DNA of 64,000 nt from Candidatus Levybacteria bacterium RIFCSPHIGHO2_01_FULL_37_17 (GCA_001782035.1 MFNL01000002.1:60865-124864); one strand, 5' to 3'; shown: positions 43,593-61,352, counted from the stretch's first letter. Numbers and translations are program-made. Notes: a model not told the origin generated them from the sequence alone.

Positions 43593-43665
43593 GCGCCTGT
43601 AGCTCAATGGATAGAGCACTTCGCTTCGGACGAAGGGGTTGGGGGTTCGACTCCCTTCAGGCGCG
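43593..43665 (+). tRNA. tRNA-Arg (TCG)
   Basis: GCGCCTGTAGCTCAATGGATAGAGCACTTCGCTTCGGACGAAGGGGTTGGGGGTTCGACTCCCTTCAGGCGCG. Confidence 0.8.
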
Positions 43666-43689
43666 CTTCGCTTCGCTCAGCGTAAACGC

Positions 43690-43968
43690 ATGAAATGGTA
43701 TGTTTATATTCTCAAATGTAAAGATAGTAGTTTATATACCGGTATAACTACCAATGTAAATAGAAGAATAAATGAGCACAACTCAAAAAAGGGAGCGAAG
43801 TCTTTATTGGGAAAATTACCGGTAAAATTATTGTATAATGAGGTGTTCGACAATCAAATTAAAGCAGCTAAACGTGAAAGAGAAATCAAAGGATGGCGAA
43901 GGGAAAGAAAATTGGAATTAGTTAAACGGGTTTACCCTGAAAAGGTAAAACCTTTGAAGGGCCGCTAG
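43690..43968 (+). CDS. GIY-YIG nuclease superfamily protein (UPF0213/YhbQ-like)
   Basis: MKWYVYILKCKDSSLYTGITTNVNRRINEHNS..GAK...REREIKGW. Its stop TAG lies inside the 5' end of the downstream tRNA-Lys. Confidence 0.7.
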   Translation: MKWYVYILKCKDSSLYTGITTNVNRRINEHNSKKGAKSLLGKLPVKLLYNEVFDNQIKAAKREREIKGWRRERKLELVKRVYPEKVKPLKGR

Positions 43969-44031
43969 CTCAACTGGCAGAGCATCTCCCTCTTAAGGAG
44001 ACGGTTCGGCGTTCGACTCGCCGGCGGCTCA
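43959..44031 (+). tRNA. tRNA-Lys (CTT)
   Basis: GGGCCGCTAGCTCAACTGGCAGAGCATCTCCCTCTTAAGGAGACGGTTCGGCGTTCGACTCGCCGGCGGCTCA. Confidence 0.85.
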
Positions 44032-44051
44032 CAATTTCGCTTTGTAGAAAT

Positions 44052-45089
44052 ATGTTTAAAAAAATTCGTAAATTTGCACTTGCCCACAAGAGATTACTGG
44101 TGCCAGTAATAATTGTAATACTTGTTACAACCTTTCTACTTTTACCTAAAAACGGACAAGAAATTTTAACCGAACAGGTTTCAAAAAAAGATATTGCTAA
44201 AACAGTGTCTGTGACAGGCGATGTTGATGCTGATACAAGTGTAAACCTCACTTTTAAAACTGCCGGGAAATTAGTTTATTTGGGAGCCAAGGAAGGTGAT
44301 TTTATCGAGGCCTATCAAACAATTGCCACATTAGACCAACAAACTGCACTAAAAAGCTTAAAAGGATCACTGCTCGACTATTCAATTCAGAGAAATACAT
44401 TTGAATCGACACAAGATACATACCAAGACAGGAAGCCATATCAAGCTCTTAATGATGAGATGAAAAGAATTCTTGAAAATAATCAATACAATTTAGATAA
44501 AGCTATAAATTCCGTGGAATTACAAGAGCTCTCAAGAAGGGAGTCGATATTGACAACTCCTATTGCCGGAATCGTAACTAGAGCGGATGTAAAAGTTGCC
44601 GGAGTAAACATAACAACAGCCACCACTTATACTGTTACCGATCCATCTTCTCTTAATTTCAAAATGGAAGTTGACGAAGCAGATATTGGAAAAGTGGTAG
44701 ATGGACAAGAGGTTAAGATAACTTTTGACTCCTTTCCGGATTCTGAAATTAACTTAGCTATAGATAGCATTGATTTCGTAAGCCACAAGACCTTATCAGG
44801 TGGCAACGCATTTTACGTAAAAGCTCAAATCCAAGATCCATCTAAATATCGAGTCGGAATGAGCGGAAATGCCGACATTATCATAGATAAAAGAAGTAGC
44901 GTCTTAACGGTTAATATTTCAAGTATATTCGATGATAACTTTGTGTATGTAGAAAAAAATGGAAAATTTGAAAAAAGAAAAATAAAACTAGGACTGGAAA
45001 GCGACATAGACGCAGAAGTTTTATCTGGGCTGAGCTTAGGTGAGAAAGTAGCGCTTGATCCAAATACTGTTCCTCAAAATGCCAAATAA
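44052..45089 (+). CDS. efflux transporter periplasmic adaptor subunit (HlyD/MacA-like)
   Basis: N-terminal TM, coiled coil, and a beta-barrel region (TPIAGIVTRADVKVAGVNI). Confidence 0.7.
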   Translation: MFKKIRKFALAHKRLLVPVIIVILVTTFLLLPKNGQEILTEQVSKKDIAKTVSVTGDVDADTSVNLTFKTAGKLVYLGAKEGDFIEAYQTIATLDQQTALKSLKGSLLDYSIQRNTFESTQDTYQDRKPYQALNDEMKRILENNQYNLDKAINSVELQELSRRESILTTPIAGIVTRADVKVAGVNITTATTYTVTDPSSLNFKMEVDEADIGKVVDGQEVKITFDSFPDSEINLAIDSIDFVSHKTLSGGNAFYVKAQIQDPSKYRVGMSGNADIIIDKRSSVLTVNISSIFDDNFVYVEKNGKFEKRKIKLGLESDIDAEVLSGLSLGEKVALDPNTVPQNAK

Positions 45090-49246: not shown

Positions 49247-51223
49247 GTGTATAATGGTGACATGGAAAGTGCGGAAAGACAAAAAATTAATCAACAAGCG
49301 GAATTTGTAACAGATACTTTTGAAATTAAATTTCTTTCCCGGAGCGCAGATGGGCTAGAGATAGTAACGGACCAAAAACTTTTAAGACACGCACCAAATA
49401 CTCCTTTGCCTTTTGCCGAAAGGATTGCAAAAGAAAGAGCTAGGGAGAAAAAACAATTCAGAACAGGTACTGATTTTGCTCCAAAAGTGGGAATAAGAAA
49501 CCCAAGATTAGAAGGAAACCAACTTATTGTTGATGTAATGCCTGTAACCTTCCCTACTTTTAAGGCGATAAGTGAGGCAGATATATCAACAAACGAAAGA
49601 GAAATTGCTAATCCATCAGCCACTTCATTAATTTTAGTTACTACAGAACCAGACGGATCGCATAAATTTATACTTCAACACAGGAGCCCTAAAAACTTCT
49701 TCTACGGAGACATTCCAGGGGCAAGTGCTGCAGGATACCTTGATGCAAAATTACATACTACCGGAAATGATAAGGGGAAAATAGACGCTGTTACAACAGA
49801 TTCCATCAAAGCAAATGGGGCAAAAGAAATGAGAGAAGAAATTGGACTTTACCCAAGAGATATAGAAGATCTAAAAATTACGGGGCTTGCATCAGATAAG
49901 GTTAGGGTCCACGATGAATTCCTACTTTCTGCCAAAACTAAACTCAGTGCACGGGAGATTTTATTTAGATCAGGGTTAGGCGACACACATAGATTTGTCG
50001 AACAAGCACTTATAATTGATGCTGATAAGGAAACAGTAAATAAATTGTTGACCGAAGTTAAATGTCCATTGCCTCCTACGCATTTAGCTGCTTTTATTGC
50101 TGCCGAATACGCAATTATTCTCGAGGAAGAAGGGTTAGAAGTTGCTGAAGAATGGAAAAGGGAAATACAAGGAGGCGTAAAAAGAAATTATAGAGAAATA
50201 GATGAAATGGTCCAAAGATTCTACTTATATAATTTCCAGGTGGTAGATGATGTTCCAGAAGGGAAACCAGCTAGGAATACTCGTGGTTATGATCCGGCTT
50301 ATTTACCATCGCAACAAGGTCTTCCAGATATTGATTCAGAATTAGAGCGAGTGGGAATAAAAACAAAAGAGTTACAGAGAACAGTTGATGAAGTTATGGT
50401 TTTTGATGTCGATGGAGTCTTAACCATACCGGATGAAAGATTGTTCGATAGAGAAGTAATGGAGCACATTGCCCAAGTTTTAAAAAGAGGCGAGCCTGTA
50501 ATCCTTAATACGGGCAGGTCAATTTCCTGGCTCCAAGAAAAGATAGTAGCAAGGCTATACCACGCGCACAACCTTACAGATGTCACAGCCTTGCAAAACC
50601 TGTTTATGATTGCAGAAAAAGGTGGAGCTTGGATGGGTTTTAACGAACGGGGGCTTATGGATCCAGTACCGCATAGAGATGCAAGCGTATCGGTTCCCGA
50701 AAGTTTACAAAAAAAAGTAAGAGAAATTGTATCTGATGAATTTGCAAATACTATGTTTTTTGATGAAACCAAAGTATCGATGATTTCTGTTGAAATGAAC
50801 GAGGGAATTGATCTGAAAAATCCAGAACAAGAAGAAATGTTTAGAGAAGGTCAAAAAAGATTGGTGGAAAGATTAAAGCAGCTCTTAAAAAGTGAAGGGT
50901 TGGATACAGATTTAAAAATTGATCCAACAACAATCGCAACCGATATACAAAACAAGCATGTGGGCAAAGACTTTGCTATGCAAAGAGCTGTCGCTTGGTT
51001 AAAACAAAGACATATTTTTCCAAAAAAATATATTACGTTCGGCGATAGCGAGTCGGATTTTGCTATGGCCCAGCACTTGCATCAAGCAGGCTCAGATGTT
51101 GAGCATGTTCATGTAGGAAAATCTGCCATTCCAGAAGGAGTTTCTTTTCCTGTGGTTATAACAGAAGGAAAGTATAACAAGGGCACGAACGAGTACTTGA
51201 AAAGTAAGGAACCAATCAGTTAA
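49247..51223 (+). CDS. fusion protein: N-terminal NUDIX-like domain plus C-terminal HAD-IIB phosphatase-like domain
   Basis: Nudix-box-like GAKEMREEIGLYP preceded by ILVTTEPDGSHKFILQHR...YGDIPGASAAGYLD. HAD motif I MVFDVDGVLT and motif IV FGDSESD in the C-terminal half. Confidence 0.5.
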   Translation: MYNGDMESAERQKINQQAEFVTDTFEIKFLSRSADGLEIVTDQKLLRHAPNTPLPFAERIAKERAREKKQFRTGTDFAPKVGIRNPRLEGNQLIVDVMPVTFPTFKAISEADISTNEREIANPSATSLILVTTEPDGSHKFILQHRSPKNFFYGDIPGASAAGYLDAKLHTTGNDKGKIDAVTTDSIKANGAKEMREEIGLYPRDIEDLKITGLASDKVRVHDEFLLSAKTKLSAREILFRSGLGDTHRFVEQALIIDADKETVNKLLTEVKCPLPPTHLAAFIAAEYAIILEEEGLEVAEEWKREIQGGVKRNYREIDEMVQRFYLYNFQVVDDVPEGKPARNTRGYDPAYLPSQQGLPDIDSELERVGIKTKELQRTVDEVMVFDVDGVLTIPDERLFDREVMEHIAQVLKRGEPVILNTGRSISWLQEKIVARLYHAHNLTDVTALQNLFMIAEKGGAWMGFNERGLMDPVPHRDASVSVPESLQKKVREIVSDEFANTMFFDETKVSMISVEMNEGIDLKNPEQEEMFREGQKRLVERLKQLLKSEGLDTDLKIDPTTIATDIQNKHVGKDFAMQRAVAWLKQRHIFPKKYITFGDSESDFAMAQHLHQAGSDVEHVHVGKSAIPEGVSFPVVITEGKYNKGTNEYLKSKEPIS

Positions 51224-51770
51224 TTTGGGGCTCAAGCAGTGTCCAATTATGAGATACATAAGGCTCACTGCATAGGTTACGATTAAAACAGCATGGCCTT
51301 CTCTCTCCAGAATTGAGCTTAGAAAGGGCAACTTCTATATGTTTTTGGCGAGTTTCAGATGTTTTGACAGCTCGTATCCAACGAACCCAATCCCAACGTG
51401 CATTTGGAGTAATATCTTTCCATAAAGCCTCGGCTTTGGGTGAAGACAACAACGCTTTCTTTAAATCGTCTGGGACTTCCGGCTCAATCCATTCTTTAGT
51501 CGGTTCAAGCGTAACCTGTACTGTATCGCCAGCAGCTGCACTAGCATCATCAAGCAACTTTTTGTCAAGCCTAAACCAGTGGCTTGGTTGTTTTCCTACT
51601 CCATACTTTCCATCCGGCTCAAGCAAGGTTTTAAAAAGAACCCCGTTGATAGTTCCCGAAACCATGGTCATACCTCTTGAGGGAAGTTTCGCGCTTGCAT
51701 CCTCAGGAAGTCTTAAAATGGTCCATGTGTTGATCTTAAACAACTTAGCTTCAAAACTTATTGCGGACAT
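51216..51770 (-). CDS. DUF1905 plus YdeI/OmdA (bacteriocin-protection-like) two-domain protein
   Basis: N-terminus LPEDASAKLPSRGMTMVSGTINGVLFKTLLEPDG (DUF1905-like). C-terminus ARWDWVRWIRAVKTSETRQKHIEV (OmdA-like). The ATG lies 2 nt downstream of the tRNA-His CCA on the same strand. Confidence 0.55.
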   Translation of the reverse strand: MSAISFEAKLFKINTWTILRLPEDASAKLPSRGMTMVSGTINGVLFKTLLEPDGKYGVGKQPSHWFRLDKKLLDDASAAAGDTVQVTLEPTKEWIEPEVPDDLKKALLSSPKAEALWKDITPNARWDWVRWIRAVKTSETRQKHIEVALSKLNSGERRPCCFNRNLCSEPYVSHNWTLLEPQIN

Positions 51771-51772
51771 CG

Positions 51773-51847
51773 TGGGTGGATGACGGGTAACGCTCCCGCT
51801 GCCTCCTGGACCACAACCAGGCGTTCTGCTTTTGAACTACATCCACC
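51773..51847 (-). tRNA. tRNA-His (GTG) with encoded G-1 and CCA; non-canonical D- and T-loops
   Basis: rc reads G-GTGGATG TA GTTC AAAAGCA GAAC G CCTGG TTGTGGT CCAGG AGGCA GCGGG AGCGTTA CCCGT CATCCAC C CCA. The D-loop lacks GG and the T-loop lacks the TTC. Confidence 0.6.
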
Positions 51848-51873
51848 ATGCTTACACTGAGTAAATCGAAGTG

Positions 51874-51946
51874 CGACCCTGGAGGGAATCGAACCCCCAA
51901 CCTGGTGCTTAGAACGCACTCGCTCTATCCGTTGAGCTACAGGGCC
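51874..51946 (-). tRNA. tRNA-Arg (TCT)
   Basis: rc reads GGCCCTGTAGCTCAACGGATAGAGCGAGTGCGTTCTAAGCACCAGGTTGGGGGTTCGATTCCCTCCAGGGTCG. Confidence 0.8.
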
Positions 51947-52005
51947 ATGCTCATATTTTATCAAAAATACCCTCGAAACAAAAGACTCGCTAGTGTATAA
52001 TCGAG

Positions 52006-52860
52006 TTGAATTTATTGATGAAAAAAATATTTATTCAACAAATCGTTCCCGTTGCTCTCACAATTTTAACTTTCCTCGTACTTTCTACATGTCTTTATGG
52101 TTTGCTTCTTTTATTAAATTTATTGCCATTATCTGAAAAAATTCTACTAGATTTTAATAAACGGGACGTATTAATCGGAATAGCTATTTATTTAAAAACA
52201 GCGATTGACTTCGCAATATTTATAGGTAACTTAATGCACACAAACCCCGGATGGAAGAAGCGTATTGCAATAGAGCTGGGAACGGCTGTGGGTAATGCAT
52301 TTGGTACATTTGCAGTCCTTATTGTGTGGGTTTTATTTAAGGAAGTGCCAATCTTAATGATGCTTATGATATTTGTAGCATCGATTGTGTTATTAAGAAT
52401 GGCTCAAGAAAGTCTTGAGGAATTTCTAAAACAGAAAAAAAGTTTTATCGATATAAAAATGCCCGTTTATCTTCTTCAGTCTCAACTGAATTTCGTAAAT
52501 AAATTATTTCGTCCAATTCTTAAATTTGTAGTGCCGCATTTGAACTTAACGAGGGTTAAAAAACTGTCATTTGTTAATTTAGCAGTTTTTTCATTTACGA
52601 TACCTTTTATTTTGGGTTTGGACGATTTTGCTGGTTATGTTCCGTTATTCAATGTGATTAATCTATTTGGATTTGCCCTTGGAGTAATGCTTGGGCACAT
52701 GATTTTAAATATAGGATTATTTATCTGGCCAACTAAAACTGTACAAATAGTAAGGCACCCATTTGTACTAATAATAGGTGGATTGGCTTTTGTCGGTCTT
52801 GCTTTGTGGGGTTTTTACGAAGTCTTCAAGCTATTTACATTTAATATAATGAGCGGGTGA
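52006..52860 (+). CDS. hypothetical multi-pass membrane protein
   Basis: 284 aa with about 7 hydrophobic helices. Its 3' end overlaps the convergent tRNA-Gly(TCC) by about 8 nt. Confidence 0.4.
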   Translation: MNLLMKKIFIQQIVPVALTILTFLVLSTCLYGLLLLLNLLPLSEKILLDFNKRDVLIGIAIYLKTAIDFAIFIGNLMHTNPGWKKRIAIELGTAVGNAFGTFAVLIVWVLFKEVPILMMLMIFVASIVLLRMAQESLEEFLKQKKSFIDIKMPVYLLQSQLNFVNKLFRPILKFVVPHLNLTRVKKLSFVNLAVFSFTIPFILGLDDFAGYVPLFNVINLFGFALGVMLGHMILNIGLFIWPTKTVQIVRHPFVLIIGGLAFVGLALWGFYEVFKLFTFNIMSG

Positions 52861-52922
52861 AGGGAATCGAACCCTCGTATCAACTTTGGAAAAGTTGTGT
52901 TCTGCCATTGAACTACACCCGC
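52852..52922 (-). tRNA. tRNA-Gly (TCC)
   Basis: rc reads GCGGGTGTAGTTCAATGGCAGAACACAACTTTTCCAAAGTTGATACGAGGGTTCGATTCCCTTCACCCGCT. Confidence 0.85.
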
Positions 52923-53071
52923 CAAATGGGACAAACCTCGCGGTTTTCCCCAACGATTTCCATTTAAGGATAGCAAAATCGGAACTCTTAATCCAGCGAT
53001 TTTGCTTAATCGTAGATAAATTATTATACAAAACATTTGAAGTTTGCTCAAGAATTCGCTACGATATTTTT

Positions 53072-53377
53072 ATGTCACAAGGGATTAATCATTTTCACGG
53101 ACATAAAAAACCAGTTACTCCTTTTGATCATTTAATGTATGCTGTAGCTTTAATAGCACCACTTCTTACTGTTCCTCAATTCCTAGATGTGTGGATAAGA
53201 AAGGATGCATCGGGCCTTTCACTTTTTACATGGAGCGCCTATACAGTTATGTCTTTTCTTTGGCTCTTATATTGGAAAGAGCACCATAAAACGTGGATCC
53301 TTCTTGGGCATATTATTATTCTTTTACTTAATGCTGGGATTGTACTTGGAATCTTGATTTACGGTAAGTCGGGGTGA
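53072..53377 (+). CDS. SemiSWEET/PQ-loop-like small 3-TM membrane protein
   Basis: About 100 aa with three TM helices and a PQ motif in TM1 (TVPQFLDVW). The start is placed at the Met downstream of the overlapping tRNA. Confidence 0.4.
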   Translation: MSQGINHFHGHKKPVTPFDHLMYAVALIAPLLTVPQFLDVWIRKDASGLSLFTWSAYTVMSFLWLLYWKEHHKTWILLGHIIILLLNAGIVLGILIYGKSG

Positions 53378-53440
53378 GAGGAATTGGACCTCTTACTTCT
53401 CGGTCCCAAACCGAGCGTTCTACCGATGAACTACACCCCG
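53369..53440 (-). tRNA. tRNA-Pro (TGG)
   Basis: rc reads CGGGGTGTAGTTCATCGGTAGAACGCTCGGTTTGGGACCGAGAAGTAAGAGGTCCAATTCCTCTCACCCCGA. C1-G72 is typical of bacterial tRNA-Pro. The T-loop reads TCCAATT. Confidence 0.8.
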
Positions 53441-53442
53441 TG

Positions 53443-53513
53443 CTGCCGAGCTTGGATTCGAACCAAAATAAACGGATCCAAAGTCCGTTGTCCTACCATT
53501 AGACGACTCGGCA
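53443..53513 (-). tRNA. tRNA-Gln (TTG)
   Basis: rc reads TGCCGAGTCGTCTAATGGTAGGACAACGGACTTTGGATCCGTTTATTTTGGTTCGAATCCAAGCTCGGCAG. U1-A72 is typical of bacterial tRNA-Gln. Confidence 0.8.
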
Positions 53514-53627
53514 ATGCTTCAATTCTATCAATTTTTTGCTCAGTTGAAAAGCGAAGCACATTGCCGTAAAATTGTTTTACGTCATATTTTGTCCGCTTGC
53601 CTCGCTTTGCGGGACAAGAACTGACGA

Positions 53628-53712
53628 GCCGTGGTGGTGGAATGGCAGACACGAGGGCCTTAAGAGCCTTTGTCCCTAAACGGACGTGAGAGTTCGACTC
53701 TCTCCCGCGGCA
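53628..53712 (+). tRNA. tRNA-Leu (TAA), class II with a long variable arm
   Basis: GCCGTGGTGGTGGAATGGCAGACACGAGGGCCTTAAGAGCCTTTGTCCCTAAACGGACGTGAGAGTTCGACTCTCTCCCGCGGCA. Confidence 0.85.
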
Positions 53713-53715
53713 CAA

Positions 53716-54822
53716 TTAAAGCATGTCGGGATTAATTTTAATGATTTTATCATCTCCTGATTTCGAAACCCCTCTTCCATCCAAATTACTTGTAGTTATA
53801 TATAGAAAATTATCCGGCCCCAAAACTACATCTCTTAATCTTCCATATTCATTCTTAAAATACTCCGTTAATTGTTGCGTTGAAATATTATACTTGTAGA
53901 AAGCCTCTCCTTTTAGACCGCCAAAATATAATGAGCCATTGTGATATGCAAGACCGGCAGGTGCCCAAACATTTCTATCTGATTGCAATACGGGCCCCAC
54001 AGTTCCTGATCTAACGCTCTGGCCGACGCTTTCCGGCCAGCCGTAGTTTTTGCCTTCTTCTATTTTATTTATTTCGTCTTGGCAACAATTAGGCCAAATT
54101 CCAGAAGGACCATGCTCTGTTTCCCAAAGTTGTCCTGACTCATCCCAAGCAATTCCTTGTGGATTCCTGTGTCCGTATGAATAAATCGCAACTTTTCCAT
54201 CTCTTTCAACCCGCAATATTTTTCCAGCAAATGAATCCCTATCTTGTGCCAAAGAGGACTGCGTCGCATCACCGGTTGTAATATAAAGCAGGCCATCTGG
54301 CCCAAACTTAATTCTGCCTCCGTTGTGATAAATTCCGCCAGGAATTTCGTCAACTATGATTTTTTCTTCAGATAAAGAGCCATTCTTATAAGTTAATCTA
54401 ACCACTCGATTAAGAGTATTATTTCCGTTTCCGCTATATGTGTAGTAAAAATAAATAAAATTGTTTGAAGAAAAATTTGGGTCCAAGGCCATTCCCATAA
54501 GACCGCCTTCTCCGTATTCTTTTACATTTCCAAGCTTCGTAATCTCACTTTTTTCTTTTTTTCTTATCAGAGCAACTGTTCCATTTCTCTCGGTAATAAG
54601 CATTGAGTTATCAGGAAGAAAAGCAATTGACCAAGGAGTGTCTAATTGTTCCGCGATTACCGTTATATTCTTAGAAGGAGTTTCACTTTTAGGTTTTAAC
54701 GTGTTAAGACTTGGGAATACGGAGTCTTTATTAATAAATATGACAAAGAATGCTAATCCGACCAAAATCAAGATTATTAATAAAACTATTCTCATAACAA
54801 TAATATAACGTATTTTAAACAA
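53716..54822 (-). CDS. PQQ-dependent soluble sugar (glucose/sorbosone) dehydrogenase-like beta-propeller, membrane-anchored
   Basis: GSDH-family motifs (HNGGRIKFGPDGLLYITTGDATQSSLAQD...GKILRV, YSYGHRNPQGIAWD). Confidence 0.7.
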   Translation of the reverse strand: MFKIRYIIVMRIVLLIILILVGLAFFVIFINKDSVFPSLNTLKPKSETPSKNITVIAEQLDTPWSIAFLPDNSMLITERNGTVALIRKKEKSEITKLGNVKEYGEGGLMGMALDPNFSSNNFIYFYYTYSGNGNNTLNRVVRLTYKNGSLSEEKIIVDEIPGGIYHNGGRIKFGPDGLLYITTGDATQSSLAQDRDSFAGKILRVERDGKVAIYSYGHRNPQGIAWDESGQLWETEHGPSGIWPNCCQDEINKIEEGKNYGWPESVGQSVRSGTVGPVLQSDRNVWAPAGLAYHNGSLYFGGLKGEAFYKYNISTQQLTEYFKNEYGRLRDVVLGPDNFLYITTSNLDGRGVSKSGDDKIIKINPDML

Positions 54823-54847
54823 AATATCTTACAGAGCTATAAATTTT

Positions 54848-55816
54848 TTGTATAATATTCGAATTATGCGTGAAACTGTCCTAAAGTTTTTTAGCCTTCT
54901 TATTAGCAAATTTGCTTTCGCTTTTATAATCACCACTCTACTTACAGGAATAATTTTAATACCATTTGTTATTAAAAACACTTATAAAATAAACCAAGCA
55001 CCTAAGCCTCTGCTCGATATAGTCCCCACTAAAATTATTACCAAAACGCCTACCGCAACACCTAGCCCTACATTAAAACCTATTCCGTCCAATATCATTG
55101 CGCCAACGAGTCCTCCTGTTGTAATAAATAATGTAGCTCCAGGATCTGGCTACAACAGGCAAACTGTTGCAATATCAGAAGGAAATTTTATCGTGGATAT
55201 TATAGCTGCGGATTTAAATACAACCAGAGTAATCGTTGACACTGCATCTGATTCTGATTGCTTCGATAATTGCCCAGTACTTCCGCTTTCAGATTATGTA
55301 TCAAGGAGTGGAGGATTTGCGGGTATCAATGGTACGTATTTCTGTCCGGCTTCATATCCATCATGTGCCGGCAAAGTTAATTCGTTCGATTTATTGGTTA
55401 TGAATAAAAACAAATATTATTTTAATTCCTCCAATAATGTTTACAGCACAAACCCTGCAGTAATCTTTTATGGCAACTCTGTAAGGTTTGTCGGGCAAGC
55501 GCTTGAATGGGGAAGGGACACTGGTGTAGATGCTGTAATCTCAAACTTTCCATTATACGTAAGCGGCGGAAATGCTGTAGCACAAGGGGGAGTGAGGGGA
55601 TTTAAATCATTTATCGGAAATAAAGGGAGCACGGTTTATATTGGATTCGTACGAAATGCAACCGCAGGAGAAACTGCAAAGGTTTTGCAAGCCTTAGGTT
55701 TGGAAAATGCGATGGGCTTGGACCAAGGAGGTTCCACTGCTTTAATGTATAACAGCTCCTATATTCTTGGCCCTGGTCGCGGGATACCAAATGCTGTCCT
55801 ATTTGTGCGTAAATAG
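54848..55816 (+). CDS. phosphodiester glycosidase (NAGPA/DUF2233) family protein, N-terminal TM
   Basis: GGFAGINGTYF... and LDQGGSTALMYN motifs typical of DUF2233. Confidence 0.6.
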   Translation: MYNIRIMRETVLKFFSLLISKFAFAFIITTLLTGIILIPFVIKNTYKINQAPKPLLDIVPTKIITKTPTATPSPTLKPIPSNIIAPTSPPVVINNVAPGSGYNRQTVAISEGNFIVDIIAADLNTTRVIVDTASDSDCFDNCPVLPLSDYVSRSGGFAGINGTYFCPASYPSCAGKVNSFDLLVMNKNKYYFNSSNNVYSTNPAVIFYGNSVRFVGQALEWGRDTGVDAVISNFPLYVSGGNAVAQGGVRGFKSFIGNKGSTVYIGFVRNATAGETAKVLQALGLENAMGLDQGGSTALMYNSSYILGPGRGIPNAVLFVRK

Positions 55817-55900
55817 TGCCCAAGGGGAGATTCGAACTCCCAAGTCCTTGCGGACACAGCGTTCTGAACGCTGCGCGTCTGCCAGTTTCGCCACCTGGGC
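55817..55900 (-). tRNA. tRNA-Leu (CAG), class II
   Basis: rc reads GCCCAGGTGGCGAAACTGGCAGACGCGCAGCGTTCAGAACGCTGTGTCCGCAAGGACTTGGGAGTTCGAATCTCCCCTTGGGCA. Confidence 0.85.
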
Positions 55901-55905
55901 ATTTG

Positions 55906-55977
55906 TGGGCCCTGAGGGACTTGAACCCCCGACACCTGCGATGTAAACGCAGTGCTCTACCACTGAGCTAAGAGCCC
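55906..55977 (-). tRNA. tRNA-Val (TAC)
   Basis: rc reads GGGCTCTTAGCTCAGTGGTAGAGCACTGCGTTTACATCGCAGGTGTCGGGGGTTCAAGTCCCTCAGGGCCCA. Confidence 0.85.
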
Positions 55978-55980
55978 TGG

Positions 55981-56064
55981 TGCGGATGAGAGGACTCGAA
56001 CCTCCACGCTTTTTACGGCACAGCCACCTCAAGGCTGCGTGTATACCAGTTTCACCACATCCGC
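55981..56064 (-). tRNA. tRNA-Leu (GAG), class II
   Basis: rc reads GCGGATGTGGTGAAACTGGTATACACGCAGCCTTGAGGTGGCTGTGCCGTAAAAAGCGTGGAGGTTCGAGTCCTCTCATCCGCA. Confidence 0.8.
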
Positions 56065-56067
56065 GTG

Positions 56068-56140
56068 TGCTGAGGGCGTGAGTCGAACACGCATAGCCTG
56101 TTCTTCAGACAGGTGCCTTGACCACCTTGGCTACCTCAGC
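56068..56140 (-). tRNA. tRNA-Phe (GAA)
   Basis: rc reads GCTGAGGTAGCCAAGGTGGTCAAGGCACCTGTCTGAAGAACAGGCTATGCGTGTTCGACTCACGCCCTCAGCA. The D-stem is 3 bp with a long D-loop. Confidence 0.7.
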
Positions 56141-56165
56141 TTGGATTAATATTATACAAGAGCTC

Positions 56166-56193
56166 TTGACTCTTGACAAATTTAGTGTAGAAT
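56166..56193 (+). promoter_or_regulatory. promoter TTGACT-N16-TAGAAT driving a near-leaderless ORF at 56208
   Basis: Consensus hexamers; the ATG lies about 8 nt after the predicted TSS. Confidence 0.45.
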
Positions 56194-56207
56194 ATCATCC
56201 TTATATT

Positions 56208-56495
56208 ATGCCAGTATCGCAATTCGAGAGAGAAAGAACAACTAGAGTAAACTTTGATGAGCTTGCCGGCAAAGTCGGAGGGGAAGTTGTTAGAACAAAG
56301 AGCGGGGAGAAAACAAGCGAGAAATTACTCGTAGGTGATAAAAGAGGAGTCTTTAACTGGAGCTTAATAAGAGAGATTATCCCGCAAAGACTTTCTCGAG
56401 TGTTTTTTCAAGATGAATTCGGCAGAGCAGATGTTACCGACTTAAGTATTTCAGTTAATGGAAGTAGAATAGTATTCGAAGTTTCTGAAGCCTAA
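56208..56495 (+). CDS. hypothetical protein
   Basis: ORF trimmed to the first Met downstream of tRNA-Phe and the promoter. No family recognised. Confidence 0.4.
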   Translation: MPVSQFERERTTRVNFDELAGKVGGEVVRTKSGEKTSEKLLVGDKRGVFNWSLIREIIPQRLSRVFFQDEFGRADVTDLSISVNGSRIVFEVSEA

Positions 56496-56686
56496 CTTTT
56501 CTTCTTTGGTACTTTTGCCCCTGCTTTTCTAGCTTCAGATAGTCCAATTGCGATAGCCTGTTTTCTACTCTTAACCTTTCCACCCCTTCCACTCTTTAAC
56601 GCACCACGTTTATACTCGTGGATAGCTTTTTCAACTTTTTGCTGAGCTTTCTTACCATATCTAACCATATTTATACTCCTCACCAA
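56492..56686 (-). CDS. small basic hypothetical protein
   Basis: 64 aa, Lys/Arg-rich with the segment SRKQAIAIGLSEARKAG. Convergent with the 56208 gene. Confidence 0.4.
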   Translation of the reverse strand: MVRSINMVRYGKKAQQKVEKAIHEYKRGALKSGRGGKVKSRKQAIAIGLSEARKAGAKVPKKKS

Positions 56687-56714
56687 TAAAACGCGTAAAT
56701 GCCCTTGTTGTTAT

Positions 56715-56743
56715 CTTGAGCCTGGGGTACATTTTTGCTATAC
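56715..56743 (+). promoter_or_regulatory. promoter for tRNA-Gly(GCC): TTGAGC-N17-TATACT
   Basis: Hexamers at 56715-56720 and 56738-56743; the tRNA starts at 56755. Confidence 0.5.
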
Positions 56744-56754
56744 TCCAATAGTTC

Positions 56755-56826
56755 GCGGGAGTAGTTCATCGGTAGAATGTTTCCTTGCCAAGGAAAAGGC
56801 AGCGGGTTCGATTCCCGTCTCCCGCT
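56755..56826 (+). tRNA. tRNA-Gly (GCC)
   Basis: GCGGGAGTAGTTCATCGGTAGAATGTTTCCTTGCCAAGGAAAAGGCAGCGGGTTCGATTCCCGTCTCCCGCT. Confidence 0.85.
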
Positions 56827-56880
56827 CATAGCCCCAAATTTCTTGACAAAAACATCTGAATTTGTCATTCTAAGGGATAC

Positions 56881-57456
56881 ATGAGAAAGATACTTATTTC
56901 TGCCTGCTTCTTCTTTCTTACTCCGGCACTTTTAATAGTTTCCATTCTATTTTTCGGCTATCTCAGCTCATATTCAGAACGCTCTTTTCTATCATTCCAA
57001 AAATCGCCCAAAGTAGCATACGCTGCTGTTCCAAATTCAAATCAAGCCTACTTATTAGATAATGCAGAAAAAGATGCCCGGGTAGAAAGAATAAGAGATT
57101 TTCTGACAAAATACGACTCTGACCTTGCTCCATATGCAGAATTTATTGTTGAAACAGCAGATAAATATAGCCTGGACTGGAGACTGGTCCCTGTAATTGC
57201 GATGCAGGAATCAACTCTTTGTAAAAAGGCGCCCAAAGATTCTTTTAACTGCTGGGGATTTGGGATTTACGGCAAGAAAGTTACAAAATTCTCAAACTAT
57301 AAAGAAGCAATTGAAACTGTTACAAAGACCCTTGCCAAGAATTACATAGACCAAGGACTAGTTGAGCCTGACGAAATAATGAGTAAGTATACGCCTTCAA
57401 ACGACGGAACTTGGGCCAAAAACGTAGCAAGTCTTATGAATGGTCTACAAATCTAG
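56881..57456 (+). CDS. secreted glucosaminidase-like (GH73/FlgJ-like) peptidoglycan hydrolase, paralogue 1
   Basis: Signal peptide; LDWRLVPVIAMQEST...NCWGFGIYG resembles the GH73 catalytic region. Confidence 0.45.
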   Translation: MRKILISACFFFLTPALLIVSILFFGYLSSYSERSFLSFQKSPKVAYAAVPNSNQAYLLDNAEKDARVERIRDFLTKYDSDLAPYAEFIVETADKYSLDWRLVPVIAMQESTLCKKAPKDSFNCWGFGIYGKKVTKFSNYKEAIETVTKTLAKNYIDQGLVEPDEIMSKYTPSNDGTWAKNVASLMNGLQI

Positions 57457-57471
57457 CCCATAGTACACCCC

Positions 57472-57500
57472 TTGACAAACCTATAGTTGTGTGATACAAT
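57472..57500 (+). promoter_or_regulatory. extended -10 promoter: TTGACA-N17-(TGa)TACAAT
   Basis: TTGACA at 57472-57477, TG at 57492-57493, TACAAT at 57495-57500. Confidence 0.5.
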
Positions 57501-57510
57501 GCCTCCTAGA

Positions 57511-57554
57511 TCCTAAGGTATGTCCTTCCAAATACATACGTTAGGATTTTTTTT
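57511..57554 (+). terminator. intrinsic terminator-like hairpin plus U-tract at the 5' end of the leader
   Basis: tcctaaggtatgt-ccttccaaat-acatacgttagga (13-bp stem with one G.G mismatch) followed by tttttttt. Confidence 0.5.
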
Positions 57555-57576
57555 GGGCAAAAACGCCCTCATTAAT

Positions 57577-58128
57577 ATGAAAAGAATACTGCTCGCATTT
57601 CTTGCGGCAATAATCTTAACATTTCCAAATACAACCTTTGCGCAGGAAAAGGCTTCTGCCTCATCTGCAAAGATTGTTTCAAAAATTGAAGTAAGCTCCG
57701 TATTTGATAACCGTGTTCAAATACTTAGAGCATATCTTTTACAAAGAAATTCTCCGCTTGCCTATAACGCTTCTGATTTTATAAATTACGCAGACGAACA
57801 CAGCCTGGACTGGAGATTAGTTGCCGCAATTGCAGGAGTAGAATCTTCTTATGGTCTGGCTATTCCATACAATTCCTATAATGCATGGGGATGGGGAGTT
57901 TATGGAGATAATGTAATTAGATTTGCTTCTTGGAAAGAAGGAATATACACCATTTCCGAAGGTCTTAGAAATAAGTACATGAATAAATGGGGCGCTTCAA
58001 ATGTATACGAGATTGGAAGAATGTACGCTTCTTCGGCAGCGTGGCCAAACAGCGTAAATATACACTTAAATGAGATACAAAAATTTACACTTAGGGACAC
58101 CAAAAGCTCACTTCCGCTTTCTTTCTAA
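57577..58128 (+). CDS. secreted glucosaminidase-like (GH73/FlgJ-like) peptidoglycan hydrolase, paralogue 2
   Basis: Signal peptide MKRILLAFLAAIILTF; LDWRLVAAIAGVESSYG...NAWGWGVYG is paralogous to 56881..57456. Confidence 0.45.
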   Translation: MKRILLAFLAAIILTFPNTTFAQEKASASSAKIVSKIEVSSVFDNRVQILRAYLLQRNSPLAYNASDFINYADEHSLDWRLVAAIAGVESSYGLAIPYNSYNAWGWGVYGDNVIRFASWKEGIYTISEGLRNKYMNKWGASNVYEIGRMYASSAAWPNSVNIHLNEIQKFTLRDTKSSLPLSF

Positions 58129-58161
58129 TTGAGCTATAATGTACGCATCTCTTCGCGATGC

Positions 58162-58247
58162 GCGGACGTGGTGAAACGGCAGACACGCAAGGTTTAGGAC
58201 CTTGTGCCCGCAAGGGCGTGGGGGTTCAACTCCCTTCGTCCGCACCA
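58162..58247 (+). tRNA. tRNA-Leu (TAG), class II, CCA encoded
   Basis: GCGGACGTGGTGAAACGGCAGACACGCAAGGTTTAGGACCTTGTGCCCGCAAGGGCGTGGGGGTTCAACTCCCTTCGTCCGCACCA. Confidence 0.85.
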
Positions 58248-58252
58248 AAACT

Positions 58253-59086
58253 ATGAAGACAACATCACAAATAAAAAGAGAGCAAGATGGAACAATTGAA
58301 CTTACAATAGTTGTCCCTTGGCTTGGAATAAAACAAACAAAAGATGAAGTTATTGCTGATCACGCAAAGGAAGCTGATCTTGCAGGCTTTAGGAAAGGCA
58401 TGGCGCCATTGGATTTAGTTGAAAAAAGTCTAGACAAAGGACACATTAGAGAAGACATTCTTCGCAAAATCCTTCCTGCCGCATATGCTGATGCAGTAAA
58501 GACAAACGCAATTAATCCGATAGTTTCTCCAAGAGTCCGTGTCCAAAAAATCGAAGACGAGAAGGACTGGGAAATCGTAGCTCTTACTTGTGAGATGCCT
58601 AAAATTGAGTTGGGCAACTACAAAGAAGAAGTTGAAAAAGTTACCGCTAAATCAAAAATTTTAATCCCAGGAAAGGAAAGAGAAACAGTTAGTTTTGATG
58701 AAATATCAAAAGCACTTCTTGAAAGCGTAAGGCTTACTGTGCCAAAAGTAATTCTTGAGCAAGAAACAGAGAGACTTCTTGCTCAAACCTTAGATGAGAT
58801 AAAAAGACTGGGTCTAACCCTTGATCAATACCTTGCTTCAACCGGAAAAAACATAGAGGCACTAAAAGCAGACTATGCTAAAAAAGCTGAATCGGATATA
58901 AAAATAGAGTTTACTTTGCAACAAATCGCAAGCGAGCAAAACATTAAAGTCGAGGAAAGCGAAATTGAGGAAGCAATTAAGGCTGCAAAAACAGATGAAG
59001 AAAGAAAAAATCTTACAAATAATAAATATCTCGTAGCAAGTATTATAAGGCAACAAAAAACGCTTGATTTCCTACGTAACTTGTGA
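58253..59086 (+). CDS. tig: trigger factor, short form (N-terminal ribosome-binding plus C-terminal arm domains; no PPIase domain evident)
   Basis: GFRKGMAPLDLVEKSL matches the TF N-domain hallmark (GFRKGK.P). About 278 aa. The ATG lies 5 nt after the tRNA-Leu CCA. Confidence 0.6.
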   Translation: MKTTSQIKREQDGTIELTIVVPWLGIKQTKDEVIADHAKEADLAGFRKGMAPLDLVEKSLDKGHIREDILRKILPAAYADAVKTNAINPIVSPRVRVQKIEDEKDWEIVALTCEMPKIELGNYKEEVEKVTAKSKILIPGKERETVSFDEISKALLESVRLTVPKVILEQETERLLAQTLDEIKRLGLTLDQYLASTGKNIEALKADYAKKAESDIKIEFTLQQIASEQNIKVEESEIEEAIKAAKTDEERKNLTNNKYLVASIIRQQKTLDFLRNL

Positions 59087-59096
59087 TATATAAGAC

Positions 59097-59756
59097 TTGC
59101 ATATGGCATTAAAAAATCCTTTAAAAACAGTCAGAGAAAAAAACCTAGATGAAATCGGCACAGAGCTGTTGACAAGTGCTGCTAAAACTACAACCAACGA
59201 GTTAAATGAAGAATGGAAGACATTTATGAGGCAGGCTTTAGGACAAGCTGAGCAGGCTCAAAAACAAGCTCATGATGCGGAAAAACTGACCGGGGAACTA
59301 CAAGAGGGAGAAGAAATCTCTTTTGCTTCAAAGAAGGTCGAAATAAAAGAAATGAGAGTTGAGGGCGATCCGGATATGAAATACGTGGATAAAATTCTCC
59401 ATGCGGAAACAATAAGAGTAAATGCAGACAATCAGGAAATTAAGCAAAGACTTACAGAAATTCAGGTAGAACTCAAAAAAATCACCGAAAAATCCAAAGA
59501 ACTGGAAGTTCAATTTAGACAGGTTGCAGCTGAAACTATTCAAGAAAACATTAAACCAGGAAACTATCACCTGAATTTTGTAGAGTGGATGTTGTCTACT
59601 ATTCAGGCTGCACGAGTTAGAATCGAAAGTTCTGCAAACTGGATGTCAGCTTTGGCTGGAAAAAAATCAAAGAAAGACTTTTGGAGCCTTGCTAAAAAAC
59701 ACGGAACTAGCTTTAGTCTTTCTGCCGAGCGCTACATGGTTCAACAAACAGGCTAA
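59097..59756 (+). CDS. hypothetical coiled-coil protein
   Basis: 219-aa ORF, Gln/Glu/Lys-rich helical; no motif recognised. Confidence 0.35.
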   Translation: MHMALKNPLKTVREKNLDEIGTELLTSAAKTTTNELNEEWKTFMRQALGQAEQAQKQAHDAEKLTGELQEGEEISFASKKVEIKEMRVEGDPDMKYVDKILHAETIRVNADNQEIKQRLTEIQVELKKITEKSKELEVQFRQVAAETIQENIKPGNYHLNFVEWMLSTIQAARVRIESSANWMSALAGKKSKKDFWSLAKKHGTSFSLSAERYMVQQTG

Positions 59757-59826
59757 TTTACCTCTTGATATAAAATACAAACGTTGTTGTTTGAACACAC
59801 TTATTTTGCTAAAATAAACGAGTCGC

Positions 59827-59900
59827 GGGCTCGTAGCTCAGTTGGTTAGAGCGTTGCATTGACATTGCAAAGGTCAGAAGTTCGACTCTTCTCGGGCCCA
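59827..59900 (+). tRNA. tRNA-Val (GAC)
   Basis: GGGCTCGTAGCTCAGTTGGTTAGAGCGTTGCATTGACATTGCAAAGGTCAGAAGTTCGACTCTTCTCGGGCCCA. Confidence 0.85.
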
Positions 59901-59905
59901 CACAA

Positions 59906-60133
59906 ATGAAAAAAATATTTTTGACCTGGAATCTACCTGAATATAAAGAATGGGCCACTCCTACAGATGGTGGTTATGAACTTTACATTATCCGAAAAGA
60001 ACCAGATAATTTCCTCGTGGTAAAAGCAAAACTAATAATTGAAGCGAGGGGCTTACCAGGTTTTAAAGTTTTAGAAGAACACAATCTTTCTGATGAAAAA
60101 TCCGCTTTAAGAAAAGTGCAGGAATGGAGATAG
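59906..60133 (+). CDS. hypothetical small protein
   Basis: 75-aa ORF whose ATG lies 5 nt after the tRNA-Val 3' end. Confidence 0.3.
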   Translation: MKKIFLTWNLPEYKEWATPTDGGYELYIIRKEPDNFLVVKAKLIIEARGLPGFKVLEEHNLSDEKSALRKVQEWR

Positions 60134-60168: not shown

Positions 60169-60786
60169 ATGGCAATTGAAACGATTAATGCAGAAGAAGA
60201 AAAAAGGAAACTGCTTTGGCTCAAGGATTTAAGCGAGTTTATTGTCGAAGCTAACCTGGCGACATGGGCGGGAGAAGGAAAAGAAGTTGAGCAACCCCAA
60301 AGACCAGGTTATAAAGAGCTTGAATATCCTCCCCAAAAAGAACCTGGAATAATTCCGCAAAAGGGATTTTACCTTAGAGACAGTTATACAAAATACTTCA
60401 GAGCTCCAGGTATGACGACCATTTACTATAATGGAGAACCTGCATGGGCAATGTCATATGGGGGAACCGGAATGGTGCCTGGATATGAGCTTAGGGCACA
60501 AGAAGTTTTTACTTTTCTAAAACACGCCTTGAAAGCCGTTTCTCCTCAGCTTCCATTCAGAGGACCTACTGAGTTTGGAGAAGGACGTTTAATTTACAGG
60601 TTTAATCTACTACCGAATACTGATGGAAATCTAGGTAATCTCGAAGATGCTTTATGGCAGGAAAAAATATTTGAACAAGGAATAGGAGATCGTCCTGACA
60701 TCCTTTTATTTACACAAACGGGAATTGCGGGAGTTGCAATAGGCAAGGGCGAGCATACAACAGCAATAAAACCTTGGAATTTATGA
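60169..60786 (+). CDS. hypothetical protein (possibly DUF5680-like)
   Basis: WAGEGKEV...YFRAPGMTTIYYNGEPAWAMSYGGTGM segment; family assignment from memory only. Confidence 0.3.
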   Translation: MAIETINAEEEKRKLLWLKDLSEFIVEANLATWAGEGKEVEQPQRPGYKELEYPPQKEPGIIPQKGFYLRDSYTKYFRAPGMTTIYYNGEPAWAMSYGGTGMVPGYELRAQEVFTFLKHALKAVSPQLPFRGPTEFGEGRLIYRFNLLPNTDGNLGNLEDALWQEKIFEQGIGDRPDILLFTQTGIAGVAIGKGEHTTAIKPWNL

Positions 60787-61352
60787 CAAGAGACGAGGCC
60801 TACAATTTGCTTTCGCAGCACATAGTCAATCAAAATTTAATAAAGCATATGCTTGCTACGGAGGCTGTCATGCGGGCGCTTTGCAAAAGGCTGCTGCAAA
60901 ATCCCAGCGTACAAGTTTTGGATAATTGGGGATTAGTTGGGTTACTGCATGACTTGGATTATGAAATGGCTAAGGAAGCTCCGGAAAAACACGGACTAAT
61001 TTCTAAAGATTTATTAACTGGTAAAATTAGCGAACCACAAATTTATGCGATTATGGCTCACAATTCAAAGTATACAAAAGTGGAGCCTAAATCAGCACTT
61101 GATTGGAGCATCGCATGTTGTGACGAGCTCACTGGCTTAATCGTTGCATCTGCTCTTATTCATCCAGATAAAAAACTTTCTTCCATAAATGCGGAATTCG
61201 TTATGAAAAGATTTAGAGAAAAAAATTTTGCAAAAGGGGCAAACAGAAAATCTATCGAGAGATGCAAAGAAAAACTCGGAATTGAGCTTGAGGAATTTAT
61301 TGAAATTAACCTTGAGGCGATGCAGGAAATTGCACCAATTCTTGGACTCTGA
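60774..61352 (+). CDS. HD-domain phosphohydrolase
   Basis: H...HD motif (VGLLHDLDYE) and later metal-binding His (IMAHNSKY). Confidence 0.6.
   Translation: MEFMTRDEAYNLLSQHIVNQNLIKHMLATEAVMRALCKRLLQNPSVQVLDNWGLVGLLHDLDYEMAKEAPEKHGLISKDLLTGKISEPQIYAIMAHNSKYTKVEPKSALDWSIACCDELTGLIVASALIHPDKKLSSINAEFVMKRFREKNFAKGANRKSIERCKEKLGIELEEFIEINLEAMQEIAPILGL

Follow-up and report, generated by a model that had tools for sequence, protein, structure and literature searches.

In the mitochondrial tRNA punctuation model, which Ojala, Montoya and Attardi are said to have put forward in 1981, tRNAs lie directly against coding sequences in a genome-length transcript, and their excision leaves leaderless mRNAs. 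Here we describe what appears to be a bacterial counterpart in Candidatus Levybacteria bacterium RIFCSPHIGHO2_01_FULL_37_17, an ultra-small groundwater bacterium of the Microgenomates in the candidate phyla radiation (CPR). The analysed stretch, hereafter the window, comprises 64,000 nucleotides (nt; GCA_001782035.1, MFNL01000002.1:60865-124864) with 37% G+C and 19 tRNA genes. Three of its protein genes, namely a DUF1905/OmdA gene, the trigger factor gene tig, and a gene for a conserved protein of 75 amino acids (aa), begin 4-8 nt after a co-directional tRNA. We estimate a probability of roughly 0.6 that these genes are expressed by co-transcription with the tRNA, followed by endonucleolytic processing of the tRNA 3' end and then by translation initiation that depends on the mRNA 5' end.

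As in mitochondria, the tRNAs directly flank coding sequences, predicted tRNA excision would set the mRNA 5' end near the AUG, and Shine-Dalgarno sequences are lacking. Unlike mitochondrial genes, however, the window genes are punctuated on the 5' side only, end in complete stop codons, with more genes of their operons behind them; each tRNA has a promoter of its own instead of sharing a genome-length transcript; the predicted leaders are 1-12 nt long rather than 0-3 nt; and the bacterial host also uses promoters and some Shine-Dalgarno sites. In mitochondria, the 3' ends of mRNAs are set by the next tRNA, and the stop codons, which are often incomplete, are completed by polyadenylation. The mitochondrial analogy was already drawn in the preliminary description of the window; it fits the 5' side of the genes and breaks down on the 3' side, where complete stop codons and operons are found.

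In Escherichia coli, the thrU-tyrU-glyT-thrT-tufB operon likewise has a protein gene that is transcribed from a tRNA promoter and parted from the tRNAs by processing, but the start of tufB is about 100 nt past the final tRNA, with a Shine-Dalgarno site of its own, whereas the window spacers are 4-8 nt long and contain no Shine-Dalgarno motif. In plant mitochondria, t-elements set mRNA ends, and in Haloferax tRNase Z cuts a tRNA-like element. In these systems, as predicted here, a tRNA-shaped structure seen by RNase P or RNase Z defines the end of the neighbouring RNA; unlike t-elements, the structures in the window are bona fide tRNAs that the cell needs.

In promoter-defined leaderless genes of Actinobacteria and Deinococcus, the -10 box lies about 6-7 nt before the start codon (PMC4633059, PMC3848588, PMC4681348). 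Levybacteria resemble these groups in a lineage-wide -10 hexamer 6 nt before the ATG, and a -10 box, at 6-10 nt, also precedes orthologues of tig (12 loci) and DUF1905 (up to 5 loci). In contrast, a -10 box is missing from the three window genes, and their mRNAs are predicted to carry the 5' monophosphate of a processed end, not the triphosphate of an initiation event. The concept of tRNA punctuation has a famous precedent; its bacterial form appears to be new, and a literature search of limited coverage, which is no proof of novelty, found no report of leaderless expression or tRNA punctuation in CPR/Patescibacteria.

Three genes and their upstream tRNAs

The tRNAs were located by ARAGORN and Rfam (the window tRNAs score 49-71 bits in Rfam), and spacers were counted from the tRNA discriminator base to the ATG. 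The three junctions consist of the following elements.

51955-51963, minus strand: extended -10 promoter TGATAAAAT, 8 nt 5' of the tRNA-Arg(TCT) +1
51874-51946, minus strand: tRNA-Arg(TCT), first gene of the Arg-His-DUF1905 unit
51775-51847, minus strand: tRNA-His(GTG) including the encoded G-1 (51847; body 51775-51846)
51771-51774, minus strand: spacer CACG, 4 nt, from the tRNA-His discriminator to the ATG
51216-51770, minus strand: DUF1905/OmdA (YdeI-like) gene, 184 aa; ATG at 51770-51768, the conserved Met1
58135-58140, plus strand: TATAAT -10 box, 21 nt 5' of tRNA-Leu(TAG); layout shared by the closest relative, L001
58162-58247, plus strand: tRNA-Leu(TAG); discriminator A at 58244, encoded CCA at 58245-58247
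58248-58252, plus strand: spacer AAACT, 5 nt, without Shine-Dalgarno motif or -10 box
58253-59086, plus strand: tig, short trigger factor of 277 aa with Trigger_N and Trigger_C; conserved N-terminal Met
59807-59815, plus strand: extended -10 promoter TGCTAAAAT, 11 nt 5' of tRNA-Val(GAC)
59827-59900, plus strand: tRNA-Val(GAC); discriminator A at 59900, CCA not encoded
59901-59905, plus strand: spacer CACAA, 5 nt, from the tRNA-Val discriminator to the ATG
59906-60133, plus strand: conserved gene of 75 aa without Pfam match; ATG at 59906

ARAGORN, Rfam and the sequence agree with the preliminary description that the three genes start right past a co-directional tRNA, with ATGs at 51770-51768 (minus strand), 58253 and 59906. 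It had given spacers of 2-5 nt, and the 5 nt after the CCA of tRNA-Leu and the 5 nt after tRNA-Val stand. The spacer after tRNA-His, on the other hand, is 4 nt (CACG) and not 2 nt: the letters that had been read as a CCA ending at 51773 are present, but they represent the discriminator C73 (51775), which is paired with G-1, followed by C and A, and the true CCA is not encoded. Counted from the discriminator, tRNA-Leu(TAG) and the tig ATG are 8 nt apart (CCAAAACT). The gap between tRNA-Arg(TCT) and tRNA-His is 27 nt and contains the motif TTCG..CTCAG.GTAA, and TGATAAAAT is the presumed promoter of the Arg-His-DUF1905 transcript.

Homologue alignments, which had been suggested as a check, place all three ATGs at conserved N-termini (23 homologues for tig, 12 for DUF1905 and two for the 75-aa protein). 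The 12 DUF1905/OmdA homologues are 79-85% identical to the window protein; Met1 is the start in 10 of them, and the remaining two, called as 198 and 234 aa, match Met1 at an internal position. All 12 align through residues 1-35, and the Pfam domain DUF1905 begins at residue 6 of the 184-aa protein. The public call of the window gene (P0154) comprises 149 aa and starts at Met36 (51665), cutting into the conserved domain. We give almost no credence to the idea that the annotated starts are wrong and that the real ones lie downstream behind normal signals, as at this Met36. The 149-aa call and an AAGAGG 8 nt before the ATG at 51665 would suit such a start, but the position of the domain, the retention of Met1 in homologues and the conserved N-termini of the tig and 75-aa products speak against it, and downstream starts for the three genes are rejected by the alignments.

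The best 120 tig homologues are mostly 275-277 aa long, and 23 homologues align from the window Met. Longer database entries (288-304 aa) have N-terminal extensions, such as 'MPFKGVGVQVPSSA...', that are translations of the upstream tRNA. These entries are gene-caller artefacts, and the extensions imply that tig stands behind this tRNA in those genomes too. The 75-aa open reading frame (ORF) has two homologues with 57-66% identity and 39 invariant residues, whose N-termini lie within 2 residues of the window Met. For annotation, the consequence of such junctions is that gene callers have either lengthened tig into the tRNA or shortened DUF1905.

Further observations concern the proteins themselves. 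The trigger factor of the window is 100% identical to a protein from a Candidatus Levybacteria bacterium of the RIFCSPHIGHO2_01 assemblies, in keeping with an origin of the window in this lineage. In the trigger factor, Pfam identifies Trigger_N and Trigger_C only, without a PPIase/FKBP domain, and this short form (275-277 aa) is kept across Levybacteria. More than 100 proteins with the labels Methylomirabilota, Anaerolineae, Roizmanbacteria and Levybacteria share 79-85% identity with the DUF1905/OmdA protein, which is either unusually high conservation across phyla or a sign of recent transfer.

No promoter or terminator was found between the tRNAs and the three ATGs; the promoters sit 5' of the tRNAs. 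Since there is no -10 element between tRNA and ATG, the tRNA promoter is the only evident source of the three mRNAs. Positions -12 to -7 before the ATGs read CGCACC, CATCCA and GGGCCC, which are not -10 boxes. A scan for -35 plus -10 promoters, which is ill-suited to the extended -10 promoters of the lineage and was not enriched overall (32 sites against 25.2 +/- 5.7 in shuffles), found nothing in the 15 nt upstream of any of the three ATGs. Each of the genes begins with ATG, and none has a Shine-Dalgarno motif in its spacer. A Shine-Dalgarno sequence hidden in the 3' part of the tRNA was also considered and rejected: the nearest GGAGG or GGGAG is more than 20 nt from the ATG and lies within the tRNA arms.

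Start signals and tRNA junctions in the lineage

For comparison, 80 Levybacteria loci (L001-L080, 1.23 Mb) were taken from GTDB species representatives scanned with a trigger-factor alignment. The window and these loci around tig together make up about 1.3 Mb of sampled DNA, to which the following statistics refer. Genes were called by a 3-periodic Markov score with the first ATG taken as the start, which resulted in 1115 genes.

In 115 of the 1115 genes, the distance from a -10-like hexamer to the ATG is exactly 6 nt; it is 7 nt in 50 and 8 nt in 32, as compared with 12.6 +/- 4.8 genes at control distances. The peak at 6 nt is a signature of promoter-defined leaderless mRNAs, which are probably widespread in the lineage. 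Among genes with a divergent upstream neighbour, which need a promoter of their own, 27% have a -10 box at 6-8 nt (background, 3%). Shine-Dalgarno-like 4-mers at -4 to -12 occur in 7-21% of genes against a background of 8%, and the figure for operon-internal genes is 21%. In the window, the leaderless layout is found at the ATGs 6099(-), 22380(-), 27647(+), 35957(+), 49262(+) and 61608(+, thrS), and strong GGAGG sites precede a few genes (9592, 11596 and 31833). These figures suggest that Levybacteria make great use of 5'-terminal AUGs and little use of Shine-Dalgarno pairing. The 3' end of 16S rRNA, which would give the anti-Shine-Dalgarno sequence, is absent from the window and the 80 tig loci.

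The promoters of the tRNAs themselves are also recognisable. Of 344 tRNAs that are first in their cluster, 165 have a -10 hexamer, mostly TG-extended (TGnTAnAAT), whose end lies 8-13 nt short of the tRNA 5' end. At this distance from the mature 5' end, the tRNA 5' leaders are predicted to be only about 1-6 nt long, which would be unusually short for RNase P substrates.

None of the 48 tRNA-abutted genes in the sample has a -10 box at 6-8 nt or a Shine-Dalgarno-like 4-mer, in agreement with the earlier statement that the spacers leave no room for either signal. A cryptic promoter inside the tRNA, which, like downstream starts, had been named as a finding that would contradict the proposal, would start transcription at or near the ATG and produce an ordinary leaderless mRNA. 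We consider it highly improbable. Leaderless promoters are frequent in the lineage, and a few relatives with 10-14 nt spacers have weak -10-like strings over the tRNA end or the spacer (for example CTAATA and TATAAT in L003 and L042); against this, the hexamers at -12 to -7 before the three window ATGs are not -10 boxes, none of the 48 abutted genes has one at 6-8 nt and the promoter scan had no site there. A promoter in the tRNA or the spacer is rejected on sequence. MazF-type generation of a leaderless mRNA at an ACA, which is present in the tRNA-Val spacer, was set aside for want of evidence and because tRNA processing is simpler.

The spacing of tRNAs and coding sequences (CDSs) depends on their orientation. 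Spacers of 0-12 nt are found in 47 of 226 co-directional tRNA-to-CDS junctions, in none of 93 divergent junctions, and in 9 of 174 CDS-to-tRNA junctions, including 5 overlaps. The Fisher test gives p = 3e-8 against divergent and p = 4e-6 against CDS-to-tRNA junctions; note that orthologous junctions are not independent and these tests overstate independence. Statistics on tRNA-to-ATG distances had been suggested as a check; in this sample, tight abutment is orientation-specific, as co-transcription predicts, and goes beyond chance. Tight tRNA-to-CDS junctions are about as frequent as those between CDSs inside operons (136 of 633 at <=12 nt), except that no ORF lies upstream to which translation could be coupled.

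Clustering of the proteins sorts the tight junctions into at least 14 families. For example, tRNA-Val(GAC) is tightly followed by an HD-like gene in 5 of 30 loci. The gene for a 189-aa protein tightly follows tRNA-Gly(GCC) in 5 of 8 loci, where the spacer measures 3-4 nt; several tight junctions were seen once, with spacers down to 1 nt. As for tig, it lies 3' of tRNA-Leu(TAG) in 61 junctions, 25 of them with a spacer of 2-12 nt (mode, 8-9 nt). At least 25 species keep this abutment, and trigger factor identity among them falls to about 50%. In 12 loci whose tRNA is more distant or missing, a -10 box (TATAAT, TATACT, TACAAT or TAAAAT; most have a TG in front) precedes the tig ATG by 6-9 nt; these loci include L048, L055, L058, L067, L069, L075, L077 and L080. 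At other tig loci the -10 box is 10-19 nt before the ATG, and a Shine-Dalgarno-like motif precedes tig in only 4 loci.

At further loci a tRNA 3' end, or a degenerate 3' fragment of one, stands at a like distance from tig, either at a contig edge (L036, L037) or next to an insertion (L040, L049, L071). The regions that contain an insertion between tRNA-Leu(TAG) and tig are as follows.

L040, 9837-9995
L049, 9797-9989
L071, 3660-3850

Such an insertion is also present in L043 and L070. In these loci, tRNA-Leu(TAG) itself is intact, and beyond an insertion of about 80-110 nt comes a duplicate of the tRNA 3' part, degenerate but still right against the tig ATG. In sequence, the arrangement resembles the footprint of an element integrated into a tRNA 3' end, and the degenerate fragments abutting tig in L040, L049 and L071 are a possible parallel to t-elements.

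A comparable variation is seen upstream of DUF1905. In a Roizmanbacteria genome, tRNA-His is 72 nt upstream and TGGTATAAT lies 6 nt before the ATG; three near-identical Patescibacteria contigs have TGATATAAT 8 nt before the ATG, and another Levybacteria contig has TGGTATACT 10 nt before it. The tRNA-His is still upstream of DUF1905 in 4 of the 6 loci examined. A swap between tRNA and -10 box before the same start codon is what is expected if both put the mRNA 5' end at the AUG, and the two may well be interchangeable ways of doing so.

The same comparison bears on the view that abutment is a passive by-product of genome compaction or of insertion next to tRNAs, with incidental or weak expression and no selected function. 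Compactness does extend to all types of junction (tRNAs are 2-5 nt apart and convergent stop codons overlap tRNA 3' ends), the 75-aa and DUF5680 genes look inserted between tRNA-Val and the HD-like gene, and DUF1905 is 80-85% identical to proteins of several phyla. Nevertheless, we regard this view as unlikely, since the core gene tig either keeps the abutment, as it does in at least 25 species, or gains a leaderless promoter at a precise position, divergent junctions show no abutment, and the abutted ORFs keep conserved N-termini. Moreover, it accounts for the origin of the arrangement and not for the expression of the genes.

Proposed route of expression

We propose that each of the three genes would be transcribed from the promoter of the adjoining upstream tRNA or tRNA pair as part of one precursor. 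Since the tRNA must be released in functional form, an endonuclease would have to cut at or just past the discriminator base. For tRNA-His and tRNA-Val, which lack CCA, the candidate that first suggests itself is RNase Z; in Bacillus subtilis, it cuts CCA-less tRNA precursors right past the discriminator. CCA-less tRNAs are the rule in the sample (84% of 432, with 68 encoding CCA; 17 of 19 in the window). In the case of tRNA-Leu, the cut would fall past the CCA or inside the A-rich spacer AAACU. The products would begin with CACG-AUG for DUF1905 and with CACAA-AUG for the 75-aa gene, and each mRNA would carry a 5' monophosphate. The AUG would thus be 1-12 nt from the mRNA 5' end (4, 5 and 5-8 nt at the window genes), and ribosomes would start in a 5'-end-dependent and Shine-Dalgarno-independent manner, as on the promoter-defined leaderless mRNAs of the lineage. 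That tRNA and gene are co-transcribed, where and by which enzyme the precursor is cut, and how translation begins are all inferred from computational evidence that is coherent over several independent junctions.

In minimum free energy folds of the Leu and His precursors, a tRNA multiloop closed by the acceptor stem ends 4-8 nt before the AUG; the fold of the Val junction has no canonical cloverleaf. The mRNA 5' ends are weakly structured (-0.3 to -4.7 kcal/mol), although these energies are no different from those of shuffles and add little. An initiating 30S subunit requires that the mRNA be single-stranded well upstream of its initiation codon; for this reason, initiation on the uncut precursor would be unlikely.

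This requirement is relevant to a different scheme, in which ribosomes initiate internally and without a Shine-Dalgarno sequence on an unprocessed or 5'-processed precursor, guided by the A-rich unstructured spacer and the start of the coding region, and each molecule serves either as tRNA or as protein template. Some initiation of this type must exist, since most genes, operon-internal ones included, have no Shine-Dalgarno motif; the spacers are A/T-rich, and the stop codon of a GIY-YIG gene inside tRNA-Lys(CTT), described below, already implies such an either/or fate of a transcript. At the tRNA-abutted genes, however, the closing point of a stable acceptor stem is 1-8 nt from the AUG, inside the stretch held by the 30S subunit, there is no upstream ORF to couple translation, and the same genes in relatives have 5'-terminal AUGs. 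We therefore assign internal initiation a small share of the probability.

Several points weigh against processing followed by 5'-end-dependent initiation. Shine-Dalgarno motifs are rare throughout the lineage, so their absence at three genes is not special. The first ATG after the tRNA was taken as the start, and in junction families seen once the start comes from the gene call alone. A tblastn search for RNase Z, with a reconstructed B. subtilis query, gave no match, which is uninformative given that the search covered only about 1.3 Mb around tig. The tRNA-Leu(TAG) encodes CCA, and CCA blocks RNase Z in B. subtilis, so that by this standard a cut of a non-RNase Z type would be needed; the RNase Z of Thermotoga cuts after CCA. 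Finally, leaders of 5-9 nt lower leaderless-type initiation in E. coli.

With leaders of 1-12 nt and a 5' monophosphate, the predicted mRNAs would not be leaderless in the strict sense. Transcriptome studies define leaderless as a leader of <10 nt, which the predicted leaders of 4-9 nt would fit operationally (PMC4681348).

If the route is confirmed, tRNA punctuation feeding leaderless translation would not be confined to organelles but would have been reached independently by reduced bacterial genomes. It would account for the expression of CPR genes without detectable promoter or ribosome-binding site, and it would put genes such as that for trigger factor under tRNA promoters and hence link them to the regulation of the translation apparatus. 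The natural tRNA-abutted and -10-box variants of one gene would also offer a system for studying the translation of short-leader mRNAs with a 5' monophosphate and their protection from 5' exonucleases.

A broader proposal, which we find quite possible but would advance only tentatively, is that tRNA genes act as general expression platforms in Levybacteria and perhaps in the CPR. A strong extended -10 promoter combined with obligatory 3' processing would provide a 5'-proximal AUG to ribosomes adapted to leaderless initiation, and this would be an independent, bacterial form of mitochondria-like punctuation driven by genome reduction. If this is true, any ORF that lands right past a tRNA would be expressed without a promoter or ribosome-binding site, and tRNA 3' ends and leaderless promoters would replace each other repeatedly in evolution.

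Neighbouring genes and sequences past tRNA 3' ends

Other genes near the tRNAs of the window include the following.

43690-43968, plus strand: GIY-YIG gene, beginning 24 nt past tRNA-Arg(TCG) (43593-43665)
60169-60786, plus strand: DUF5680 gene, 3' of the 75-aa gene
60783-61352, plus strand: HD-like gene, 3' of the DUF5680 gene

The GIY-YIG ORF overlaps tRNA-Lys(CTT) (43959-44031) by 10 nt from 43959, and its TAG stop codon (43966-43968) is in the 5' acceptor stem, as the preliminary description had recognised in placing the stop inside the tRNA. An RNase P cut at tRNA-Lys could leave a non-stop GIY-YIG mRNA, in which case a transcript would yield either the tRNA or a complete protein. RNase P would here remove a stop codon, whereas in mitochondria incomplete stop codons are completed by polyadenylation. 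Neither the 24 nt between tRNA-Arg(TCG) and GIY-YIG (43666-43690) nor the 20 nt between tRNA-Lys(CTT) and an HlyD-like gene (44032-44052) contains a Shine-Dalgarno motif or a -10 box, and tRNA-driven expression may reach beyond the three tight junctions.

The 75-aa, DUF5680 and HD-like genes are apparently in one operon. The gene order DUF5660, 75-aa, DUF5680, together with tRNA-Val, was found again on 24 contigs of independent assemblies. In relatives, the HD-like gene directly follows tRNA-Val(GAC), at 2-40 nt in many of the 80 loci. The 75-aa and DUF5680 genes appear to have been inserted between tRNA-Val and the HD-like gene, so that the inserted gene again abuts the tRNA. No orthologues of the 75-aa, DUF1905 and DUF5680 genes were found near tig in the 80 loci, and these genes are not syntenic in relatives. 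Domain families without known function among the neighbouring window genes are DUF5660, DUF5680 and DUF5665.

Short spacers also separate tRNAs from each other: from the discriminator to the next +1 they measure 2-5 nt (window 53440-53443, 55900-55905, 55977-55978 and 56064-56067). The stop codons of convergent genes overlap tRNA 3' ends. The letters CA directly follow the discriminator in 12 of the 19 window tRNAs.

A motif, TTCG-N4-8-CTCA[AG]-N-G[TC]AA, stands directly past tRNA 3' ends at 43667-43689(+) and 51872-51850(-) in the window, and it is also present in L032, L040, L043, L053, L068, L070 and L071. Of its 15 matches, 7 follow a detected tRNA and others follow tRNA remnants. In L041 and L064, related copies (TTCGACAAGCTCAGGGCAAG) occur downstream of where tig starts. 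The motif could represent a small repeat, a mobile element or else a signal for processing.

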